Source: Candidatus Marinacidobacterales bacterium
Lineage (GTDB): Bacteria; Acidobacteriota; Vicinamibacteria; Marinacidobacterales; SMYC01
Direction: 5' to 3'
Assembly: GCA_965224085.1 (NCBI GenBank)
Contig: CBDCYI010000011.1
Location: 704,001-768,000, forward strand
DNA: 64,000 nucleotides
Below the pieces are notes generated by a model that saw only the letters and a list, made by a program, of their open reading frames with translations, was not told where the DNA came from and did not search any database. A program made the translations under genes and the position numbers. This document shows positions 25,985 to 64,000 of the stretch, piece by piece. Each line of letters starts with the position of its first letter. The stretch's first letter is position 1.

Positions 25985-27113
25985 TAAGAGAGTGCCAGCG
26001 CAACGTATTCCTGTTCCAACCGTTCGATCGTCATGCGCGTGCTTGCCAAAAGAAAATTAACCACGTCGTCGTTTCGTTGAAGTCGGCCACTATTAACCCT
26101 AATCGCAAAATCTTCGAAGCACGAAAACGCGAAACAGCCGCACTTGGGCGCAGGCGAGAAGCTCGTGCTGGGGCACCCGCTCGCCGCCACTATAGGTGAT
26201 TCTGCACGGTGTATGCAGAACCTGGAAAAGGTGCTATTCACGGGGCCAAAGACCTCAGACACGGTGACGTTTATTTGCGATTAGGGTTAAGTCCATCGAT
26301 GAGCTCTGACATAGTGGACGGATGTTTCGCAAAAAGGTAGAAAATTAGCATTCCGGCTTGAGAGTAAACCTGACTGGCATCGCGTCCATAGAAGGTGTTT
26401 CGCGACATTCGTAGTAATGTTCCTAGCGGAACCAGCCCTTTTCCGTGCCAGGCGTTGAAATTTGTCTTCAACCAATCGATTGGCTCTGAAACAACGAGGT
26501 CATCCCCGATGAAGTGCCCCGATTCGTAGTACATACCGGTACCTTCCTTGATCCACGGGTTGTCTTCAGACGCTTCATAGGTGAAGAAAAGAAAACTGTG
26601 GCCGATTTCGTGGAGTTGCGTTGCAAAATCCGGTATTCGGAAGGGCACGATAAACCATCGGTAGAACCGCTCCGATTCATCGAAGCAAGTTGTTACCTGC
26701 CTACCTCCTGGAATTACGATGGATGGACAGAAAGCGAAGACTCGCTGATATAAAGAAACATTCTCCGTATAGTACAGTTCAATGCGTCGGCCGGGCGACC
26801 GAGCAAAAACTCGCGAGAAGAACCGCCATACATTGTCCGCGTGATCCGCGTGCTCTCTCGAAAAATTCTCGCTGATGTCTGAGCGCACCTGGACGCTCCC
26901 CTTGTCGGAACGAAAGGGGTACAGTGCGAATAGATCTTCCAGCCGGTTCGGTTCGGGAATAGCCGAGGTTTCCGCTCTCCCCTTGGGCTGCACTTGTGTG
27001 ACCTGCGCGGGTCCATGAGCGCGGGCTGCAACGGAGCCGCTGCTCGAGACGGGCGGAGGTGTCAAGAGAATGCCGGAAAGAACGAGCGCGATGCCTGCAC
27101 TTCGGTTAGCCAT
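25981..27113 (-). pseudogene. Secreted HEXXH (gluzincin-like) metallopeptidase-like gene interrupted by a MITE
   Basis: LHEIGH...WIKEG motif; removing 26097-26286 plus one TTAA fuses ORF 26271..27113 in frame to the tail of ORF 25981..26262. Confidence 0.8.
26097..26286. mobile_element. 190-bp MITE with IS1380-type ends and TTAA TSD
   Basis: Perfect 13-bp TIR CCCTAATCGCAAA / TTTGCGATTAGGG; TTAA at 26093-26096 and 26287-26290; TIR identical to the IS1380 end at 12175. Confidence 0.92.
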
Positions 27114-57872: not shown

Positions 57873-58523
57873 ATGAGTCCGTCGACCCAACTCGCGTCGG
57901 ATGACCAAAAACGGGTCCGGATGCTTGCCCTCATCGCAGCTGGGCTCGGCGTGGCGCATGTCGTCGCCATGCTTCTCTACTATGGAGATTTTGTCGACGA
58001 CTACGTGCACGTCTCCTTCTTCGACCTGGACGAGGAAGAAAGCTTCGGGACTTGGTTCAGCGCGGTGATTCTGCTCTACGCGGGACGCATCCTGCTGCGA
58101 CACCCACGTGCTGACGGCGACCCCTGGCATCGTTGGTGGCTCTTGCTCGCGATCGGATTTCATATTCTGTCCATCGACGAGGTCGCGGCGATGCACGAAT
58201 ACGTCAACACCGTCGTCGAAAACACACGATGGACCACGTTCGGTGCAGCCATCGTTGCGGTTGTCGGGCTGGCCTACCTTCCTTTTTTGCGCGCGCTGTC
58301 CGCGAGGATTCGCTTCCTGTTCATCGTGGCGGCGGTCGTCTATGTCGGCGGCGCCGTGGGCGTCGAGCGTGCGACCGACTGGTATGATGTGCACGACCTT
58401 CTCAACACGCTTGCCTACAACCTCTGGACGGCGGTCGAGGAAACGATGGAAATGGCCGGCGTCATCGTCTTCATCTACGCGCTTCTTCTTCTCAAGGATG
58501 AACGAAAAGTGAAGACGTCGTGA
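57873..58523 (+). CDS. Hypothetical multi-pass membrane protein
   Basis: Hydrophobic helices; F.LD.E...TW, SIDE...HE and EE..EM.G. Confidence 0.75.
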   Translation: MSPSTQLASDDQKRVRMLALIAAGLGVAHVVAMLLYYGDFVDDYVHVSFFDLDEEESFGTWFSAVILLYAGRILLRHPRADGDPWHRWWLLLAIGFHILSIDEVAAMHEYVNTVVENTRWTTFGAAIVAVVGLAYLPFLRALSARIRFLFIVAAVVYVGGAVGVERATDWYDVHDLLNTLAYNLWTAVEETMEMAGVIVFIYALLLLKDERKVKTS

Positions 58524-59466
58524 AAACACGGTCACCCCAGCGTTTCTTGTAACGGACTTGCGTGCCGAGATCATACGTAGAGACACCCGCGTCGCACAAG
58601 CGGCGGATTTGCTCGAGCTGGCACAGATTGCCGAGGGAAAGATCGGCGTAGCGATGATCGAAGCTGAACTGCAGGCCACGATACGTGTCGCCGAAAAGCC
58701 CACCGAAGATATAGGCGACGTCGGCGCCATCGAGGGTCGCGAAGAGGAGCCGGCGCGCACCCCTGTCGACGAGGCGGCGATTCATCTCGCGGTAAAACGA
58801 GCCCATCGGGTCGCCATCGATCCCGACGCCGCGTTGGCCTTTCCAACTCTTGCGCTCGATGGTCAAAAGTCTGTCGAAGGACGCGTCGGCCTCGCTGGCC
58901 TCTGCGTTATCTGCGACCTCGAATCGAATGCCCGCGCCGCGAGCGCGCTTTTCGGCTTTCCGCAGATTCTTGCGGAAGCCAGTCGAACGATTCGCGAGAA
59001 AACCGTCGACTCCCTTGGCTAGCCTTGCCACATAGCGACGCGTCGCCGCCCCACGCGAGAGCGAGAAGCGCTGGCTGAGCTCGGGGACGAGCTTCTGCCA
59101 GAGCCCAGAGCTGTCGCCGATCCCCGAGACGAGTGCTACGTCCCAAGAGTCGTCATCCGTGAGGGAGCTTACGAGAAGCTCGGCGAGCTCTGCGGGATTA
59201 CCGCCGGCGAGAGGTGATGCGAGCCCCCACATCGCTTCGAGTGGATGGACCAACCGCGTGCCGTCGTTGTGACGCGTGTGCGCGAGGGTCAAGTACGCGT
59301 CCTGCGAGCGAACGACAAAAGGCCTTGAAGCAGCAGAGAAGTGCTGTACCGCCGGAAGTATCCAGAGTGAGGAGGAGCAGAAATGATCGATCGCAGGCGT
59401 TGTGAGCACGACCTCGTCGTAGTGGGCCGCGTCTGCGGAGAGCTCTTCGAAGCTAAGGCGAGACAT
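58492..59466 (-). CDS. GNAT family acetyltransferase (CelD/BcsL-like)
   Basis: FRKNLRKAEKRA, SWKG, FD..YA..S.G.L, YDLG...YK.RW. Confidence 0.8.
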   Translation of the reverse strand: MSRLSFEELSADAAHYDEVVLTTPAIDHFCSSSLWILPAVQHFSAASRPFVVRSQDAYLTLAHTRHNDGTRLVHPLEAMWGLASPLAGGNPAELAELLVSSLTDDDSWDVALVSGIGDSSGLWQKLVPELSQRFSLSRGAATRRYVARLAKGVDGFLANRSTGFRKNLRKAEKRARGAGIRFEVADNAEASEADASFDRLLTIERKSWKGQRGVGIDGDPMGSFYREMNRRLVDRGARRLLFATLDGADVAYIFGGLFGDTYRGLQFSFDHRYADLSLGNLCQLEQIRRLCDAGVSTYDLGTQVRYKKRWGDRVFTTSSLFVHP

Positions 59467-59583
59467 CGACACGGCCGATAATACGCCACGCTGCAAAAAA
59501 CACGATGCGCGACTCCTCCAATGAGAAGCTTGCGAAGCCGTATGCGCCCGTGTGATTCTACGCGCCATGGGAGGACTCCAAAA

Positions 59584-60495
59584 ATGAAGCAGGCAAGAAA
59601 GACACAGTTTTTCGTCGCTGCGATCGCGATATTGGCCGGATGGTCAACCTTGGCCGCGGCGCAGGGACAGCGCGCCTTGACCCCGGAAGAGCAAGCCGAG
59701 CGGGAGAAGCGGTTTCAAGCCGAGCTCGTCATGCCTCGACCGGTTGAAGCGCTCGATTCTATCTGGATCGAGGAGCTGACCTGGGTCGAGATTCGTGACG
59801 CGATCGCCTCCGGGAAGACGAGCGTCCTCGTCCCGACCGGAGGGATCGAGCAAAACGGCCCCTACGTGGCGATGGGGAAGCACAACTACATTCTTCAGAC
59901 GGCGTGCGAGGACATCGCGAGAGAGCTAGGCAACGCGCTCTGTGCGCCCATCGTCAAGCTCGTGCCGGAAGGCGATATCGACGAGCCGTCGGGCCACATG
60001 CGCTATTCGGGCACGATCAGCGTCCAAAACGAGACTTTCGAGGCCGTGCTCGAAGACGTCGGCCGGAGCCTGAAGGTGCATGGCTTCGAGAACATCATTT
60101 ATATAGGCGATAGCGGAGGCAATCAGCTCGGCCAAGAGGCGGTGACTGAGCGGCTCAACAAGCGCTGGAAGGACGCGCGCGCGCATCACATCGGTGGTTT
60201 TTACGACAATAACGGGCTCATCAAATACATGAATGACGAGCTCGGGATAACCGAGCCTTCGAGTGACGGCGTTCACGATTCTTATTGGATCACGGCGCTT
60301 CAGATGGTGACGGACCCATCGACGGTCCGCTACGAACAGCGGGTGGCCGCGAACAAAGCGATGGTGAACGGTGTGAGCATCGCGGACCTCGACAAGACGG
60401 TTGCGGTCGGCAAGAAGCTGATGCAGTGGCGCGTCGACAAAACGGTCAAGCTGATTCGCGAATCGATTGGCGCGGGCCATGCGTCACAGCAATAA
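59584..60495 (+). CDS. Creatininase family protein (exported)
   Basis: EELTW.E, PTGGIEQNGP...GKH, IGDSGGN and HD. Confidence 0.88.
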   Translation: MKQARKTQFFVAAIAILAGWSTLAAAQGQRALTPEEQAEREKRFQAELVMPRPVEALDSIWIEELTWVEIRDAIASGKTSVLVPTGGIEQNGPYVAMGKHNYILQTACEDIARELGNALCAPIVKLVPEGDIDEPSGHMRYSGTISVQNETFEAVLEDVGRSLKVHGFENIIYIGDSGGNQLGQEAVTERLNKRWKDARAHHIGGFYDNNGLIKYMNDELGITEPSSDGVHDSYWITALQMVTDPSTVRYEQRVAANKAMVNGVSIADLDKTVAVGKKLMQWRVDKTVKLIRESIGAGHASQQ

Positions 60496-60507
60496 GACGC
60501 GCGCTTG

Positions 60508-60577
60508 ATGTCACTTGCTGCCGGCTCCCGCCTCGGCTCTTACGAGGTGGGCTCTGCGATCGGTGTCGGTGGTATGG
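60508..60577 (+). pseudogene. Ser/Thr protein kinase 5' end interrupted in the Gly-rich loop by IS110 end
   Basis: Manual translation MSLAAGSRLGSYEVGSAIGVGGM, cut where GEVY would follow. Confidence 0.8.
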
Positions 60578-60592
60578 ACTCCCCACGCCGGA

Positions 60593-61888
60593 TCAAGAGA
60601 AAACCTTCTTCGTAGGAATCATCGTCGATTCGCTTTTTGTTGTGGACGTCCGCGAGGGGTCGTAAAGAGTTCTTTGTCGAAGCATCGCCATGGCGATGGG
60701 TAGAATGCGGTCCATGACGCCTCTGAGAGCTCTGGCATGGCTGTGGCCCGCGTCGCGAAGCCGATCGTAGTGCTTTTTAAAGTGTGGGTCGCGAAGCACG
60801 GCAGTGCTGGCCCAATGATGGAGAGCGTTATTGAGGGGCAAAGAGCGAGCTCTCCTCATCAGGATAGTTGGTCGCAACTGACCGCGCTTGCCGCTTTTTT
60901 TCGTGACGGGTGCGATGCCGCTGAGAGTCCTGAAGGCTTTGAGATTTCGTAGCCGAATGGGGTCGTGGGCATAGCAGAGCACGGAGGCGAGCACGTAAGC
61001 ACCGACGCCGGGCAAAGAGGCAAGAATGGCAGCGTCGGAGCACTGCTTGTCGTTCAGTGCTTGCAAGCGCTTGAACCACTTCTCGAGATGCTGGTCGGAG
61101 GCACGACGATGTTGTCGAACGAGGAGCAACTGCTGAAGGAGCAGTTCGAGATGCTCAGAAGTAGCTTTGGTGGTTGCATGCGCGACTCGGAGTGGTTTTT
61201 GATTGAGGGTATCGAGGATCTGCTCGGGTTTTACGCGTCGGATGCGGTGTTTTTTAACGAGCGTCTCGATGGTGTGGCGGCTAAGAGAGTTGGGGCTGGA
61301 TTCGAAGAAGAGTTTTAGGAGCTCGCAGAAAAACGCGTCGAGAGCCTTATTCTTTGGCGCGAGCGAGACGAGGTGAGGCCAACAACGAGTAAGGAGTTCT
61401 CGGATCTGCGAGCTGAGGGCAACGTGGTTTTTGACAAGTTGGTCGCGGGTGCTCAACAGCCCGCGCATAGCAAGGATCTCCGGAGGTGGAAGTTGCAAGC
61501 GCTGAAAGCGGTGACCGTCGGTTCTGAGCGAATCGGCGAGAACGAAGGCGTCGCGCCGATCATCCTTGGCGCCGCTCATAGAATGCCGGTCGCGGAAACG
61601 GTCGACCTGCTTGGGATTGATGGAGAAAATGGCGATGGCGTTGTCAAGAAAGAGCTCGACGACGGCTCCATGAGGCTTTTCGATCGCCACTGCGATGCGC
61701 TCGGTGTCTTGCGTGGTCAGTTCCAGAAGCCAGCCGATCGTTTCTGAAAGTCCTTCGCGGCTATGAGGAAAGCCGCGCTCCCCCATAAATTGTCCCCTGG
61801 TATCGACCACGCTGGCCAAGTGAAGCCATTGGCCCAGGTCGACACCGACGAAGAAGTCGTAGTCGAGCTGATTCCTGGAAGAACTCAT
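60593..61888 (-). CDS. IS110-family recombinase/transposase
   Basis: DEDD RuvC-like residues (GVDLG, AIEK, KDDRRDA); SLPGVG and GIAPVTKKSG (Tnp-domain Ser). Confidence 0.95.
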   Translation of the reverse strand: MSSSRNQLDYDFFVGVDLGQWLHLASVVDTRGQFMGERGFPHSREGLSETIGWLLELTTQDTERIAVAIEKPHGAVVELFLDNAIAIFSINPKQVDRFRDRHSMSGAKDDRRDAFVLADSLRTDGHRFQRLQLPPPEILAMRGLLSTRDQLVKNHVALSSQIRELLTRCWPHLVSLAPKNKALDAFFCELLKLFFESSPNSLSRHTIETLVKKHRIRRVKPEQILDTLNQKPLRVAHATTKATSEHLELLLQQLLLVRQHRRASDQHLEKWFKRLQALNDKQCSDAAILASLPGVGAYVLASVLCYAHDPIRLRNLKAFRTLSGIAPVTKKSGKRGQLRPTILMRRARSLPLNNALHHWASTAVLRDPHFKKHYDRLRDAGHSHARALRGVMDRILPIAMAMLRQRTLYDPSRTSTTKSESTMIPTKKVFS

Positions 61889-61901
61889 TGCCGTCAGCGC
61901 A

Positions 61902-62036
61902 TGTGATGTTTCATCGGCCCCTGTACCGGCGCTCGAAGCGCAACTCCCCATTGGATGTCCATCACAAGAAAATTGCCGGCACGCGTGTCCATACCGGGCG
62001 CTCGGAGCGCAGGGCGAAGTATGGCGTTGCCGGCAA
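61902..62036 (-). ncRNA. Putative bridge RNA (target-binding and donor-binding loops); 5' end not defined
   Basis: Two stem-enclosed internal loops, each capped by a GCGCT-N3-AGCGC hairpin; loop sequences match the observed insertion junction and the element end. Confidence 0.8.
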
Positions 62037-62083
62037 GCTGCTGACGAAATCGAAAATAGTTCAAGCTCATCGTGAGATTTGCT

Positions 62084-62500
62084 CTACCACTGCAATCGAA
62101 GCTGGCGCGCGATGCCACCAGCTCGTGCTGGTTTTTTTCTCGGTTGTTTCGGGCGAAGCACGTCTGCGAGTTTTTCTCGAAGGTAGCGAACATAAGGCGG
62201 GTCTAGATATTCACTTCGCACTTCCTCGAGCACAGGTGAAAAATAGCGAAGGGAGCGAATGGGTTGTAGTGGCTCCTCATGCTCTTGTAGCTCCCGACGA
62301 GCGCAACCCAGAAGTAGGGCGCACTCGAATTCGTATAACGGGACGCCCTGGCGGTAGAGTCGCGTCGCCATGAAGCGATCGTCGCGCCGTGGTCGCTCAG
62401 GTGTGTTCGGAATAGAAACATAGATATCCAAAACCGCCCGGACATAATCGTTTTCTGTTAGAGCGTCGCTCGTGAGCGGTTTATCACTGAGCTTCGACAT
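62084..62500 (-). CDS. Hypothetical passenger protein
   Basis: ~138 aa; YVRAVL..Y...P.TP, ALLLGCARR, PIRSLRYF.PV.EEV; GGAGG RBS. Confidence 0.7.
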   Translation of the reverse strand: MSKLSDKPLTSDALTENDYVRAVLDIYVSIPNTPERPRRDDRFMATRLYRQGVPLYEFECALLLGCARRELQEHEEPLQPIRSLRYFSPVLEEVRSEYLDPPYVRYLREKLADVLRPKQPRKKPARAGGIARQLRLQW

Positions 62501-62889
62501 CCATCCACCTCCCGCGTCCGCCGCAGATACAGCATTTGGCATATCCGAAACTGTCAAGCTTCGTTTTCATTGAAAGAACCATCGAGCTCCGTGACCGGAT
62601 CTGTTCTCTGATTCCTACATTGCCCGAGTTACCGACGTGAATGGAACCATGATCCGTTACTTTTTCTTGGTGTCGTCGATACTCACGTTGCCGGTCCGCA
62701 CAATCTCGACTGTCCTTCGACACTTTCTCGATCTTTGCGGTTGTAGCCGCGACACTTTATTAGGCCGGCATGATAAGAGCACGCTTTACCGCAGTAGCAG
62801 TGTCCACGGTCACAGCTCTTGCAGATGTAGAAGGCCTCTGAACAGTTACGACAAAAACGCTGGTACACAACGACTGGTTTGGTGGCCAT
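62484..62889 (-). pseudogene. Cys-rich (Zn-finger-like) passenger protein, frameshifted near 62720
   Basis: CRNC...CKSCDRGHCYC..AC in one frame, continuing as DRQREYRR...VTDHGS...CCICG in another. Confidence 0.65.
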
Positions 62890-62947
62890 TTGAGACTCAG
62901 CAAGCGCTGGACTATGGCGTTTTCTCTTGATCCGGCGTGGGGAGTCC

Positions 62948-63921
62948 ATTCCGTACGGATCCTCGTGATGGTACTCGAGCCGGTTGCGCTCGGGACATCG
63001 TCTGCCGTCGTGCGCGACAAACGTGCACTGTCCCCCATCTCGCACCCATACGAAACGTTTCACCGCGGCGGCGATGCCGCGCACACCCGGTGACGTGTCG
63101 GCGTCTTCGACATTCGTTCTCGGGTTCTTCGTTTTACCGAAACGCTTGGCTTCGAGCCGCTCGAGCTTTTCGCTCACCGCCGCGTCGATGACCGAAGCGA
63201 GGTCACTACCGGGAATGAGCGCCTCGAGTCGTTCGAGTTTGTCGCGAAGCTCGGCGCTCGCCGTGAATGTTACTTGATAGCGCGCCGGTGATAGCGGCGC
63301 CACGGTCGGACGTTTTTCAGGTGCTGTCTCACGTGCCTGTGGCGGCTCATTCTCACCCGGCTCACCCGGCTCACCCGGCTCACCCGGCTCACCGTGCGCC
63401 TCTGCTCTTTCTTCACGTTGCTCGTCCGACGGCTTGGAAGGCTTGGACGATCCGGACTGGGCTTTCGGTTGCGGCTTCTTTCGAATCTTCGGTGGAACAT
63501 CCGGTTTCGGAGCCCATTCCGCCACGAGCTCTTCGAGCTCGCGTTTGCTCTTGTGAGTGGCTCTTGCCAAGACCTCTTCGCCATTGGCCTCGGTGAGATG
63601 TTTCGCGATCACGGCGATGCCACACAAGTGAAGGCGTCCATCCTCGAGCATTGTGAGAAGCGCGGGAAATCTGCGTGATAGCCGGGCGGCGGTGATTCGC
63701 CGATAGGCTTGCGCTTCCGATAAATGCAAAACGTCCAAGCAAAAGCGGAACATGGACGGCGCGGCTTCGCGAGCAAAGAGACGACGCGCATCGACCGCAG
63801 CGATATGCGCGACGAGCACGGCCTCGCGACACCGCGACTCCTTGAGGGCGTCCGATAGTCGAACAAGAAGCTCGTCATCCGATAATGCTGAGAGCCATTT
63901 CAATGTGTCCTTTGTAGTCAT
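62948..63921 (-). pseudogene. DUF222-like/HNH endonuclease domain protein truncated within the HNH motif by IS110 end
   Basis: LSDDELL.RL...LHLSEAQAYRRI.AAR; VWVRDGGQCTF...RC...LEYHHEDPYGM, then IS end sequence. Confidence 0.8.
63352..63393. repeat. 9-bp tandem repeat (CTCACCCGG)x4 plus partial, encoding GEP repeats
   Basis: Direct reading; lies in the linker of the HNH protein. Confidence 0.9.
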
Positions 63922-64000
63922 GCTTTCTTATAACATGGACTTTTTGGACGCTCACCGCTAGCGAGTAACTAACACTATCGGATAGAAACGCTTTCGAAGT

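Follow-up and report, generated by a model that had tools for sequence, protein, structure and literature searches.

The window analysed here is the whole stretch of 64,000 nucleotides (nt) at positions 704001-768000 of contig C11 in the 12-contig assembly of a Candidatus Marinacidobacterales bacterium (genome G000). Near its end lies a locus at which two genes are broken off at the right end of the same insertion sequence (IS). A Ser/Thr kinase gene, whose open reading frame (ORF) begins 13 nt past the stop of a creatininase gene (PF02633, 1.7e-27), is joined to a copy of an IS110-family element that has lost its left end (copy 1). Copy 1 is followed by the short stump of a second, inverted right end and by the 5′ part of a DUF222/HNH-type gene, which matches DUF222 weakly, at 20.2 bits (cut-off 24.4). 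The features are listed in Table 1; positions without a contig name are those of the window.

Table 1. Features of the interrupted kinase/HNH locus
Feature	Position	Strand	Remarks
Kinase 5′ stub	60508..60577	+	Ser/Thr kinase, 23 codons MSLAAGSRLGSYEVGSAIGVGGM plus G; ends in core GG (60576-60577)
Copy 1, IS110-family variant v1	60578..62918	-	2340-2341 of 2600 nt; last 259-260 nt of the left end gone
Right-end terminus, left repeat arm	60578..60604	-	27 nt, the same in v1 and v2; left-donor GGGGAGT; conserved -35-like TTGATC
Recombinase, intact	60593..61951	-	452 amino acids; PF01548, PF02371, NF033542
Bridge RNA core	61902..62036	-	target-binding loop ~61973-62036; donor-binding loop ~61902-61966
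Accessory ORF	62084..62557	-	157 amino acids as listed, 138 from the likely start MSKLSD; conserved, no family match
Cys-rich accessory gene	62484..62892	-	v1: split by a frameshift into ORFs of 69 and 79 amino acids; v2: intact, 137 amino acids
Right-end stump of second, inverted copy; right repeat arm	62919..62945	+	27 nt, or 28 with the v2-type base 62918
Core dinucleotide CC of the second insertion	62946..62947	.	from the sequence, by analogy with other copies
DUF222/HNH-type gene, 5′ part	62948..63921	-	325 codons, ends ...EYHHEDPYGM; co-directional with the genes of copy 1

A repeat search of 58000-64000 returned two inverted arms of 34 nt (60571-60604 and 62919-62952), 97% complementary and spaced by 2314 nt. 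Their perfect core of 31 bp (60574-60604 and 62919-62949) consists of ATGG plus the 27-nt end of the element. Since the remaining 11 inverted pairs in this region reach only 14-19 nt each, the 31-bp pair stands far above the background. In element orientation the kinase-side junction reads ...TGGGGAGT-CC-ATACC and the HNH-side junction ...TGGGGAGT-CC-ATTCC. The kinase ORF (ATG at 60508) is interrupted after G-V-G-G-M, and the HNH ORF (start at 63921, minus strand) after P-Y-G-M. Both junctions lack a target-site duplication (TSD), and the left end of the element (CC-TGTAC) is present at neither. A preliminary description made from the letters of the stretch had recorded the perfect 31-bp repeat, the common junction form CC-AT(A/T)CC after the shared end, the cut points at GGM and YGM, the missing TSD, the lack of CCTGTAC at a junction and the absence of the other gene halves from the window, and we found all of these as described.

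To place the locus among its relatives, the sequence 60540-62990 was used as a BLAST query against the 12-contig genome. Element sequence was detected at 12 further places, so that the genome holds 13 loci: five full copies (C11:289307, C11:626413, C5:1762827, C5:803840, and C4:1682507), two copies with both ends kept and the interior deleted (C9:115774 and C5:333077), and five one-ended pieces (C4:1482098, C4:1704404, C5:1946508, C9:748786, and the stump in the window), besides copy 1. Truncation is thus frequent, with six one-ended pieces and two internally deleted copies among the 13 loci, and the one-ended fragments elsewhere in the genome end at differing, unrelated positions. Full elements measure 2600 bp (variant v1) or 2637 bp (variant v2, ∼86% identical). 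Copy 1 is 99.7% identical to the full copy at C5:1762827-1765185 over 2359 nt. All copies that include this region run ∼260 bp past the equivalent of 62918, to the left end ...GCAAGCGTACA; the left end of full copies reads TGTACGC.... The right repeat arm of the window matches the right-end termini of other copies only, never their far end. Junctions of full copies read flank-GG-ACTCCCC...GTACA-GG-flank, with no duplication, and the two flanks join into one reading frame. When the 80 terminal nt at each end were compared, neither full variant showed an exact inverted match of at least 6 nt. Because full copies continue past 62918 and their two ends are unlike, the 2.37-kb unit in the window is a copy minus its left end, and not an element of the terminal-inverted-repeat (TIR) or IS1111-like type.

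Another copy lacking its left end is found at C4:1482098-1483633 (L017) and consists of the right end, recombinase, and bridge RNA only. Its flanks are a kinase 5′ stub and an opposite-strand kinase gene cut in subdomain V (...MELVEGES), which converge on the unit as the two genes do in the window. An orphan left end at C9:747925-748786 adjoins a kinase 3′ part and shows no tie to the kinase of the window. The 260-nt left end of full v1 copies (L014 2586-2845) contains several GC-rich hairpins. A stretch in it, GGAUGG...CCAGUACAGG, resembles the right target guide plus the right donor guide and could, by analogy, represent another guide RNA in truncated form, such as has been proposed for CazIS110 in the available text of 10.1101/2025.10.25.684509.

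The recombinase of copy 1 has the DEDD RuvC-like and C-terminal Tnp domains of the IS110 family (PF01548, 5.7e-30; PF02371, 2.9e-11) and scored 161.6 bits against the NF033542 model "IS110 family RNA-guided transposase" (cut-off 140). The match to the IS621 chain 8wt6_A (E 5.9e-7) covers the C-terminal domain only, where SLPGVG is aligned with SIPGIG; the ISCro4 chain was matched at E 2.2e-6. At full copies the same core dinucleotide lies on both sides, TSDs are absent, and the ends are unlike, as is typical of the family. The left part is long (∼1.27 kb) and precedes the recombinase together with the RNA, and the right end is short, terminating 15 nt past the recombinase stop, which is the arrangement of the IS110 group.

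Two homologous RNA loops are located upstream of the recombinase start and overlap it. Each is composed of a stem, a 5′ guide, a GCGCU-UCG-AGCGC hairpin, and a 3′ guide. The target loop of v1 carries the guides ACUUCGCCC and GGUAUGG, corresponding to the two sides of the target GGTATGG|GCGA(A/G)GT, and the donor loop carries GGGGAGU and GUACAGG, corresponding to the right and left termini of the element. The element therefore has a two-loop bridge RNA with strands matching both target and donor. Variant v2 differs from v1 in this respect only in the guides of the target loop (ACGUCGCCC and GGAAUGG). Rfam gave no match in two full copies. The left end (CCTGTAC) and the kinase continuation (GCGAAGT) predicted in the preliminary description can be traced to the two loops at 61902-62036 (minus strand); full copies elsewhere in the genome bear both out. 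The element has the recombinase, junction, and bridge-RNA features of the IS110 group and lacks the features of the IS1111 group.

The target consists of the codons of the Gly-rich loop (G-x-G-G-M|G-E-V-Y) of Ser/Thr kinase genes. The far flanks of both full copies tested (2/2) match Pkinase from profile position 13 onward (E 1.2e-13 and 2.8e-12). The flanks of other copies show the same kinase N-terminal pattern as the stub in the window, and G-x-[GC]-G-M precedes 6 of the 11 right-end junctions in this genome. Free sites fitting GGNATGGGNGANGT number 13 in the genome, of which two are perfect for v1 and none for v2; with so few free cognate sites, an off-target insertion is not surprising. 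The right end also keeps the box TTGAC[CA] or TTGATC in 34 of the 34 right ends listed. When the two ends are joined on paper, this box falls 17 nt before the left-end TACGCT, and we infer that the pair would form the junction promoter of a circular intermediate.

We then examined the subfamily outside this genome. A scan of one genome per species yielded 60 loci, and from a scan of metagenome contigs 80 of 163 were kept. Recombinase identity was at least 60% at 42 loci (L018 and L079-L119). The closest named relative locus is L019 (85% identity). The RNA region could be aligned almost without gaps across 43 sequences. In 25 of these sequences, 98.3% of cells were paired in the two-loop structure, compared with 21-45% when the partners were slid, and compensatory change was seen at seven pairs, a count equalled by 0 of 500 shuffles. 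The variable guide bases, in GG[N]AUGG and AAC[N]UC[N]CCC, correspond to codon position 3 of Gly, Gly, and Glu in G-M-G-E-V.

Right-end flanks could be obtained from 32 and left-end flanks from 17 of the 42 loci, the others being lost to a contig end or a pattern miss. Read by eye, 32/32 right-end flanks encode G-x-G-G-M and 17/17 left-end flanks encode G-[EV]-V-Y. The wobble base of the guide was that of its target in 19 of the 32 insertions (9.8 expected; 8 of 20,000 shuffles reached 19) and, with 10 insertions of the present genome added, in 25 of 42 (11.0 expected; 0 of 20,000 shuffles), although the significance is somewhat overstated since related copies are not independent. At L018 (1438-1797, minus strand) stop codons are present in the kinase 3′ part to the left of the element, so that here, too, the interrupted gene is in decay. 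In the literature searched, no IS110 element with a kinase-motif target was found described; the supplementary target tables of the 2024 papers, which lay outside this search, may list such elements.

Two protein genes accompany the recombinase. Among the 82 loci screened, the Cys-rich gene occurs in 39, namely within the set of at least 60% recombinase identity plus L019 and L151, and the 138-residue gene in 36. Neither protein belongs to a Pfam or NCBIfam family, and in the protein atlas both fall into unnamed clusters only (scores 0.91-0.97). The predicted folds have a predicted local distance difference test (pLDDT) value of 81.2 for the 138-residue protein and 72.3 for the Cys-rich protein, and Foldseek found nothing in the PDB at E ≤0.001 for either model. 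With VIA-align, the best Z scores lie below the level that is meaningful for this tool: 7.1 (AAA lid domains) and 5.4-5.7 (DnaD-like) for the helical 138-residue protein, and 3.0 (YacG, PNUTS:Tox4) for the Cys-rich one. The Cys-rich gene (window 62484-62892; L014 2152-2782; L015 2123-2536) is split in the v1 copies examined, which are the window copy and C5a, and it is intact in v2; v1 is present at no fewer than four loci. From this distribution, v1 may depend on v2 in trans for the Cys-rich protein.

Returning to the window, the second arm (62919-62945) is the last 27 nt of the right end in inverted orientation, followed by the core CC and then by ATTCCGTACGG, and hence has the form of a canonical right-end junction. 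The half-site on the sense strand of the HNH gene, GGAATGG, has one mismatch to the v1 guide and none to the v2 guide. At position 28 of the right end, base 62918 (C) is of the v2 and not the v1 type, and it fits copy 1 as well; being compatible with both parent copies, it leaves a microhomology of 0-1 nt at the junction 62918|62919. The stump probably derives from a v2 element, since the HNH half-site is a perfect match to the v2 guide. The preliminary description had proposed two bridge-RNA-guided events, the second with one mismatch. Two independent events of this kind are supported by the canonical right-end-core-target junction that each has left. The mismatch exists relative to the guide of the resident copy (GGUAUGG) and disappears when the guide of v2 (GGAAUGG) is considered.

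HNH paralogues continue with GGT-GGC-GAT (GGDRSAKNIRLxCxxHN) beyond the cut. If the paralogues are a good guide, the intact site would read GGAATGG|GTGGCGA, as compared with the kinase consensus GGNATGG|GCGAGGT, and with G:U pairs counted all six core-proximal positions of the left guide would pair. Off-target insertion at a half-match has been reported for IS621, as far as the available text of a preprint goes (bioRxiv 10.64898/2026.08.31.748434). Inside the HNH gene, at 63352-63396, a 9-nt unit, CTCACCCGG, is repeated five times in tandem and encodes a (GEP)n stretch.

Contigs from four short-read runs (X19, X21, X22, and X24, from three studies) were compared with the assembly over 60400-63300, a junction being scored as bridged when 31 nt were covered. 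The strains in these runs differ from that of the assembly (word share 0.74-0.81), and cover past 63213 is poor. Contigs of related strains cover 60400 to 60600/60603 without differences and end 23-26 nt inside the element, that is, under the 31-nt rule. Neither 62918|62919 nor 62945|62948 was bridged among the contigs listed. A circle joint was also not seen among the contigs on 60400-63300. Contigs of X19 and X21 contain 62946/7-63100 with 0-2 differences, joined to an in-frame HNH continuation, so an unbroken HNH allele exists in these strains. Loose ends at 60574-60580 in X24 and X21 indicate one or more right-end junctions in a kinase Gly-loop that is not represented among the G000 copies. 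Judged from these contigs, the element seems active in the species or, at the least, polymorphic.

We searched for the missing halves of both genes, as the preliminary description had proposed. The kinase 3′ half is in neither the window nor the 12-contig assembly, which is 95% complete. A tblastn search of the assembly with the tail of a paralogue found paralogues and degenerate fragments of the HNH gene only, none of them beside a left end, and the tail motif of the uninterrupted allele is absent from G000. Reading the left-end junctions of the genome, we found none of nine to adjoin an HNH-like tail. Since both halves are absent from the assembly, loss is preferred to relocation.

The same locus was compared among relatives. 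In three genomes of the same genus (G001-G003), the distance from the creatininase gene to the next conserved gene (C11:768355-769014 in G000) is ∼0.4-1.4 kb, as against 3.77 kb in G000. The interval in these genomes contains only the 3′ remnant of a PD40-propeller gene, and that of G004 contains a different gene. The last 120-140 codons of the PD40-propeller gene stand directly past the creatininase stop at L011, L012, and L078 (in G002, G003, and G001, respectively). There is no close copy of this remnant in G000 (best 49%). As read from these remnants, the gene after the creatininase gene is one that was destroyed independently in the lineage of the relatives and in G000. The idea that the PD40 remnant is the tail of the interrupted kinase was considered and could not be established, because an in-frame kinase P-loop is present in just one of the 11 G000 genes with this type of C-terminus. 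In the relatives, members of the HNH family are multiple and dispersed (3-27 matches), so orthology of the HNH gene could not be set.

The anatomy of the locus, the family, the target rule, and the absence of both halves from the assembly are observed; the sequence of events, the former proximity of the two genes, and the deletion itself are what we infer from them. The probable history, in our judgement, is that two guided insertions followed by one illegitimate deletion made the locus. Just downstream of the creatininase gene, a Ser/Thr kinase gene, which may have been a kinase-PD40 fusion, would have received a v1 element of 2.6 kb (copy 1) at its Gly-loop codons GGT-ATG|G, the usual target, and a member of the HNH family would have lain downstream of the kinase. 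A second copy, probably v2, would have inserted in the opposite orientation at the kinase-like near-cognate or half-match site TAC-GGA-ATG|G of the DUF222/HNH gene. The later deletion, with 0-1 nt of microhomology, would run from a point in copy 1, 259-260 nt within its left end, to a point in copy 2, 27-28 nt within its right end. Lost with it would be the kinase 3′ part, the HNH 3′ part, the left end of copy 1, and almost the whole of copy 2. The remnant would be a copy without a left end, with intact recombinase and bridge RNA, and with two right-end termini forming the 31-bp inverted repeat.

Several observations weigh against this history. The junction 62918|62919 lacks independent backing from reads. 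In copy 1 the deletion would end immediately behind TATGG, a match to 5 of the 7 bases of the v1 half-site plus core, and its other end is only 27-28 nt from a terminus, two coincidences that this history does not explain. The proposed intermediate was found in no genome, and G001-G004 have neither the HNH gene nor the kinase 5′ part at the locus. Only 1 of the 11 G000 genes with the C-terminus type of the relatives carries an in-frame kinase P-loop, and the position of the kinase stub in situ consequently rests on parsimony. At the second site, the uninterrupted HNH allele of the related strains reads ATG-CGT, with GC in place of the expected core GG, and the pre-insertion HNH sequence of G000 is approximated through the paralogues and this allele only.

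A breakpoint exactly after TATGG, where cleavage directed by the right target guide of v1 would fall, is what one would expect if the bridge recombinase itself had joined the copies or built a partial element, by half-match or partial-circle recombination through the internal TATGG(C) of copy 1. Half-match recombination, one-terminus partial circles, and re-integration of partial IS110 elements have been reported in the available text of two preprints (10.64898/2026.08.31.748434; 10.64898/2026.08.14.744561). The partner breakpoint (…GAGAAAAC|G/C…), however, has no in-register core and neither a donor nor a target arm. A core-to-core exchange at the nearest CC dinucleotides was rejected, as it predicts a product 2 nt shorter than that observed. 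Breaks in the other one-ended fragments of the genome also fall at different and unrelated positions. We consider a recombinase-made junction unlikely.

It is similarly improbable that 62918|62919 is a false join made during assembly, with two complete elements really standing at separate loci. The junction does lie inside a multi-copy repeat and is without independent confirmation. However, assemblers mis-join through shared sequence, whereas this join connects non-homologous points that share 0-1 nt, and the kinase 3′ part, the HNH 3′ part, and an extra left end would be expected somewhere in an assembly of 95% completeness but are absent.

The preliminary description had favoured an inversion, a translocation, or a mobile composite unit. 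An inversion or translocation between two complete copies, with the reciprocal product elsewhere or later lost, would account for the convergence of two gene 5′ parts on the unit, which is seen likewise between the two kinase 5′ parts at C4:1482098-1483633, and it would suit a multi-copy HNH family scattered in the relatives. Recombination between inverted copies gives complete hybrid elements, however, whereas here a stump of only 27 nt is seen. A reciprocal junction was not found, the left end at C9:747925-748786 being untied to the window kinase; the other copies are ordinary 2.6-kb elements within one gene, and the gene halves are nowhere in the assembly. We therefore hold this origin to be quite improbable. 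Classical intramolecular replicative inversion was also rejected, because it would leave the two right ends pointing outward across the inverted segment, and the arrangement observed is the reverse.

That the 2.37-kb segment is a TIR-bounded, IS1111-like, or composite transposon mobile as a unit is suggested by the 31-bp inverted repeat alone and can be practically dismissed: the unit with both arms occurs only once in the genome, the 12 other loci have no second arm and, where a far end is kept, end in the different left end, full copies have no inverted end match of at least 6 nt, the bridge RNA is upstream of the recombinase and not downstream, and the flanks come from two different genes rather than from one target.

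Bridge-RNA elements of the IS621/IS110 group were reportedly also treated by Hiraizumi and colleagues in 2024. The element resembles this group in its DEDD and Tnp recombinase domains, its upstream two-loop bridge RNA, the same core dinucleotide at both junctions without a TSD, the short right end, and, with the ends joined on paper, the -35-like box of the right end, which would face the left end across a circle junction, as far as these traits are given in the available text of Durrant et al. (2024; PMC11208160). According to the same text, IS110-group elements have the bridge RNA, with its target and donor loops, upstream of the recombinase and a short right end, and in IS1111 elements the right end is long, the guide RNA follows the recombinase, and inverted repeats of 7-17 bp lie in sub-terminal positions. 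Unlike IS621, the present element has the core CC and not CT, and what it targets is a coding motif shared within a gene family, not a repeat of the repetitive extragenic palindromic (REP) type, again within the scope of that text. It further differs from IS621 in the confinement of guide variation to wobble positions, in a left part of 1.27 kb with two conserved protein genes between left end and bridge RNA, in the low identity of the recombinase, and in an RNA without an Rfam family.

The expanded, cargo-bearing IS110 loci covered in the available text of two preprints (bioRxiv 10.64898/2026.08.14.744561 and 10.64898/2026.08.31.748434) share with it a length above 1.5 kb and one-terminus partial copies. 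In the present element, by contrast, the extra genes belong to the subfamily as a constant, conserved component and are not variable cargo. The half-match recombination treated in the same preprints, in which one arm plus the core is matched, is what the HNH site may represent; the odd junction 62918|62919 is unlike those cases in that it misfits a core-to-core exchange. With the IS1111 group (IS1111, IS4321/IS5075, and IS1111-attC), the element shares the recombinase family and a strict sequence-specific target, and it has none of the sub-terminal repeats, the long right end, or the downstream RNA of that group.

A further repeat in the window is a miniature inverted-repeat transposable element (MITE)-like sequence of ∼197 bp at 26092-26290 (C11:730092-730290), which recurs at ∼35 other places on all four large contigs with 96-100% identity.

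For the window locus, ordinary decay of two element copies is the best reading, and its interest is local only; the greater interest attaches to the subfamily that homes to the kinase motif. Copy 1 has lost the left half of the donor site and the left-end side of the presumed junction promoter. A fused frame of 412 amino acids runs from the HNH start into the Cys-rich ORF, and the genes of copy 1 are co-directional with the HNH 5′ part, so it is possible that read-through from the HNH side makes copy 1 a trans-acting helper. Tentatively, and at somewhat less than even confidence, we propose an apparently undescribed IS110 subfamily in which evolution of the bridge RNA has led it to home to a protein motif, the G-G-M-G-E-V Gly-loop codons in genes for Hanks-type kinases, the guides vary at wobble positions only so that variants address different kinase paralogues, one or two conserved accessory proteins are carried, and the window copy, now downstream of the HNH promoter, could be a fixed source of recombinase and bridge RNA acting in trans for other copies.

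This would be a naturally occurring bridge-RNA system directed at a coding motif that is conserved across a large gene family, with 13 loci in this genome and ∼42 related loci elsewhere. If confirmed, it would mean that RNA-guided IS elements use conservation at the protein level, beyond REP-like repeats, to secure many targets per genome. The wobble variation of the guides would then offer a natural set of guide/target pairs for studies of mismatch and wobble tolerance, and the two conserved accessory proteins would be candidate regulators of bridge recombination. In this acidobacterial lineage, the elements inactivate signalling kinases.

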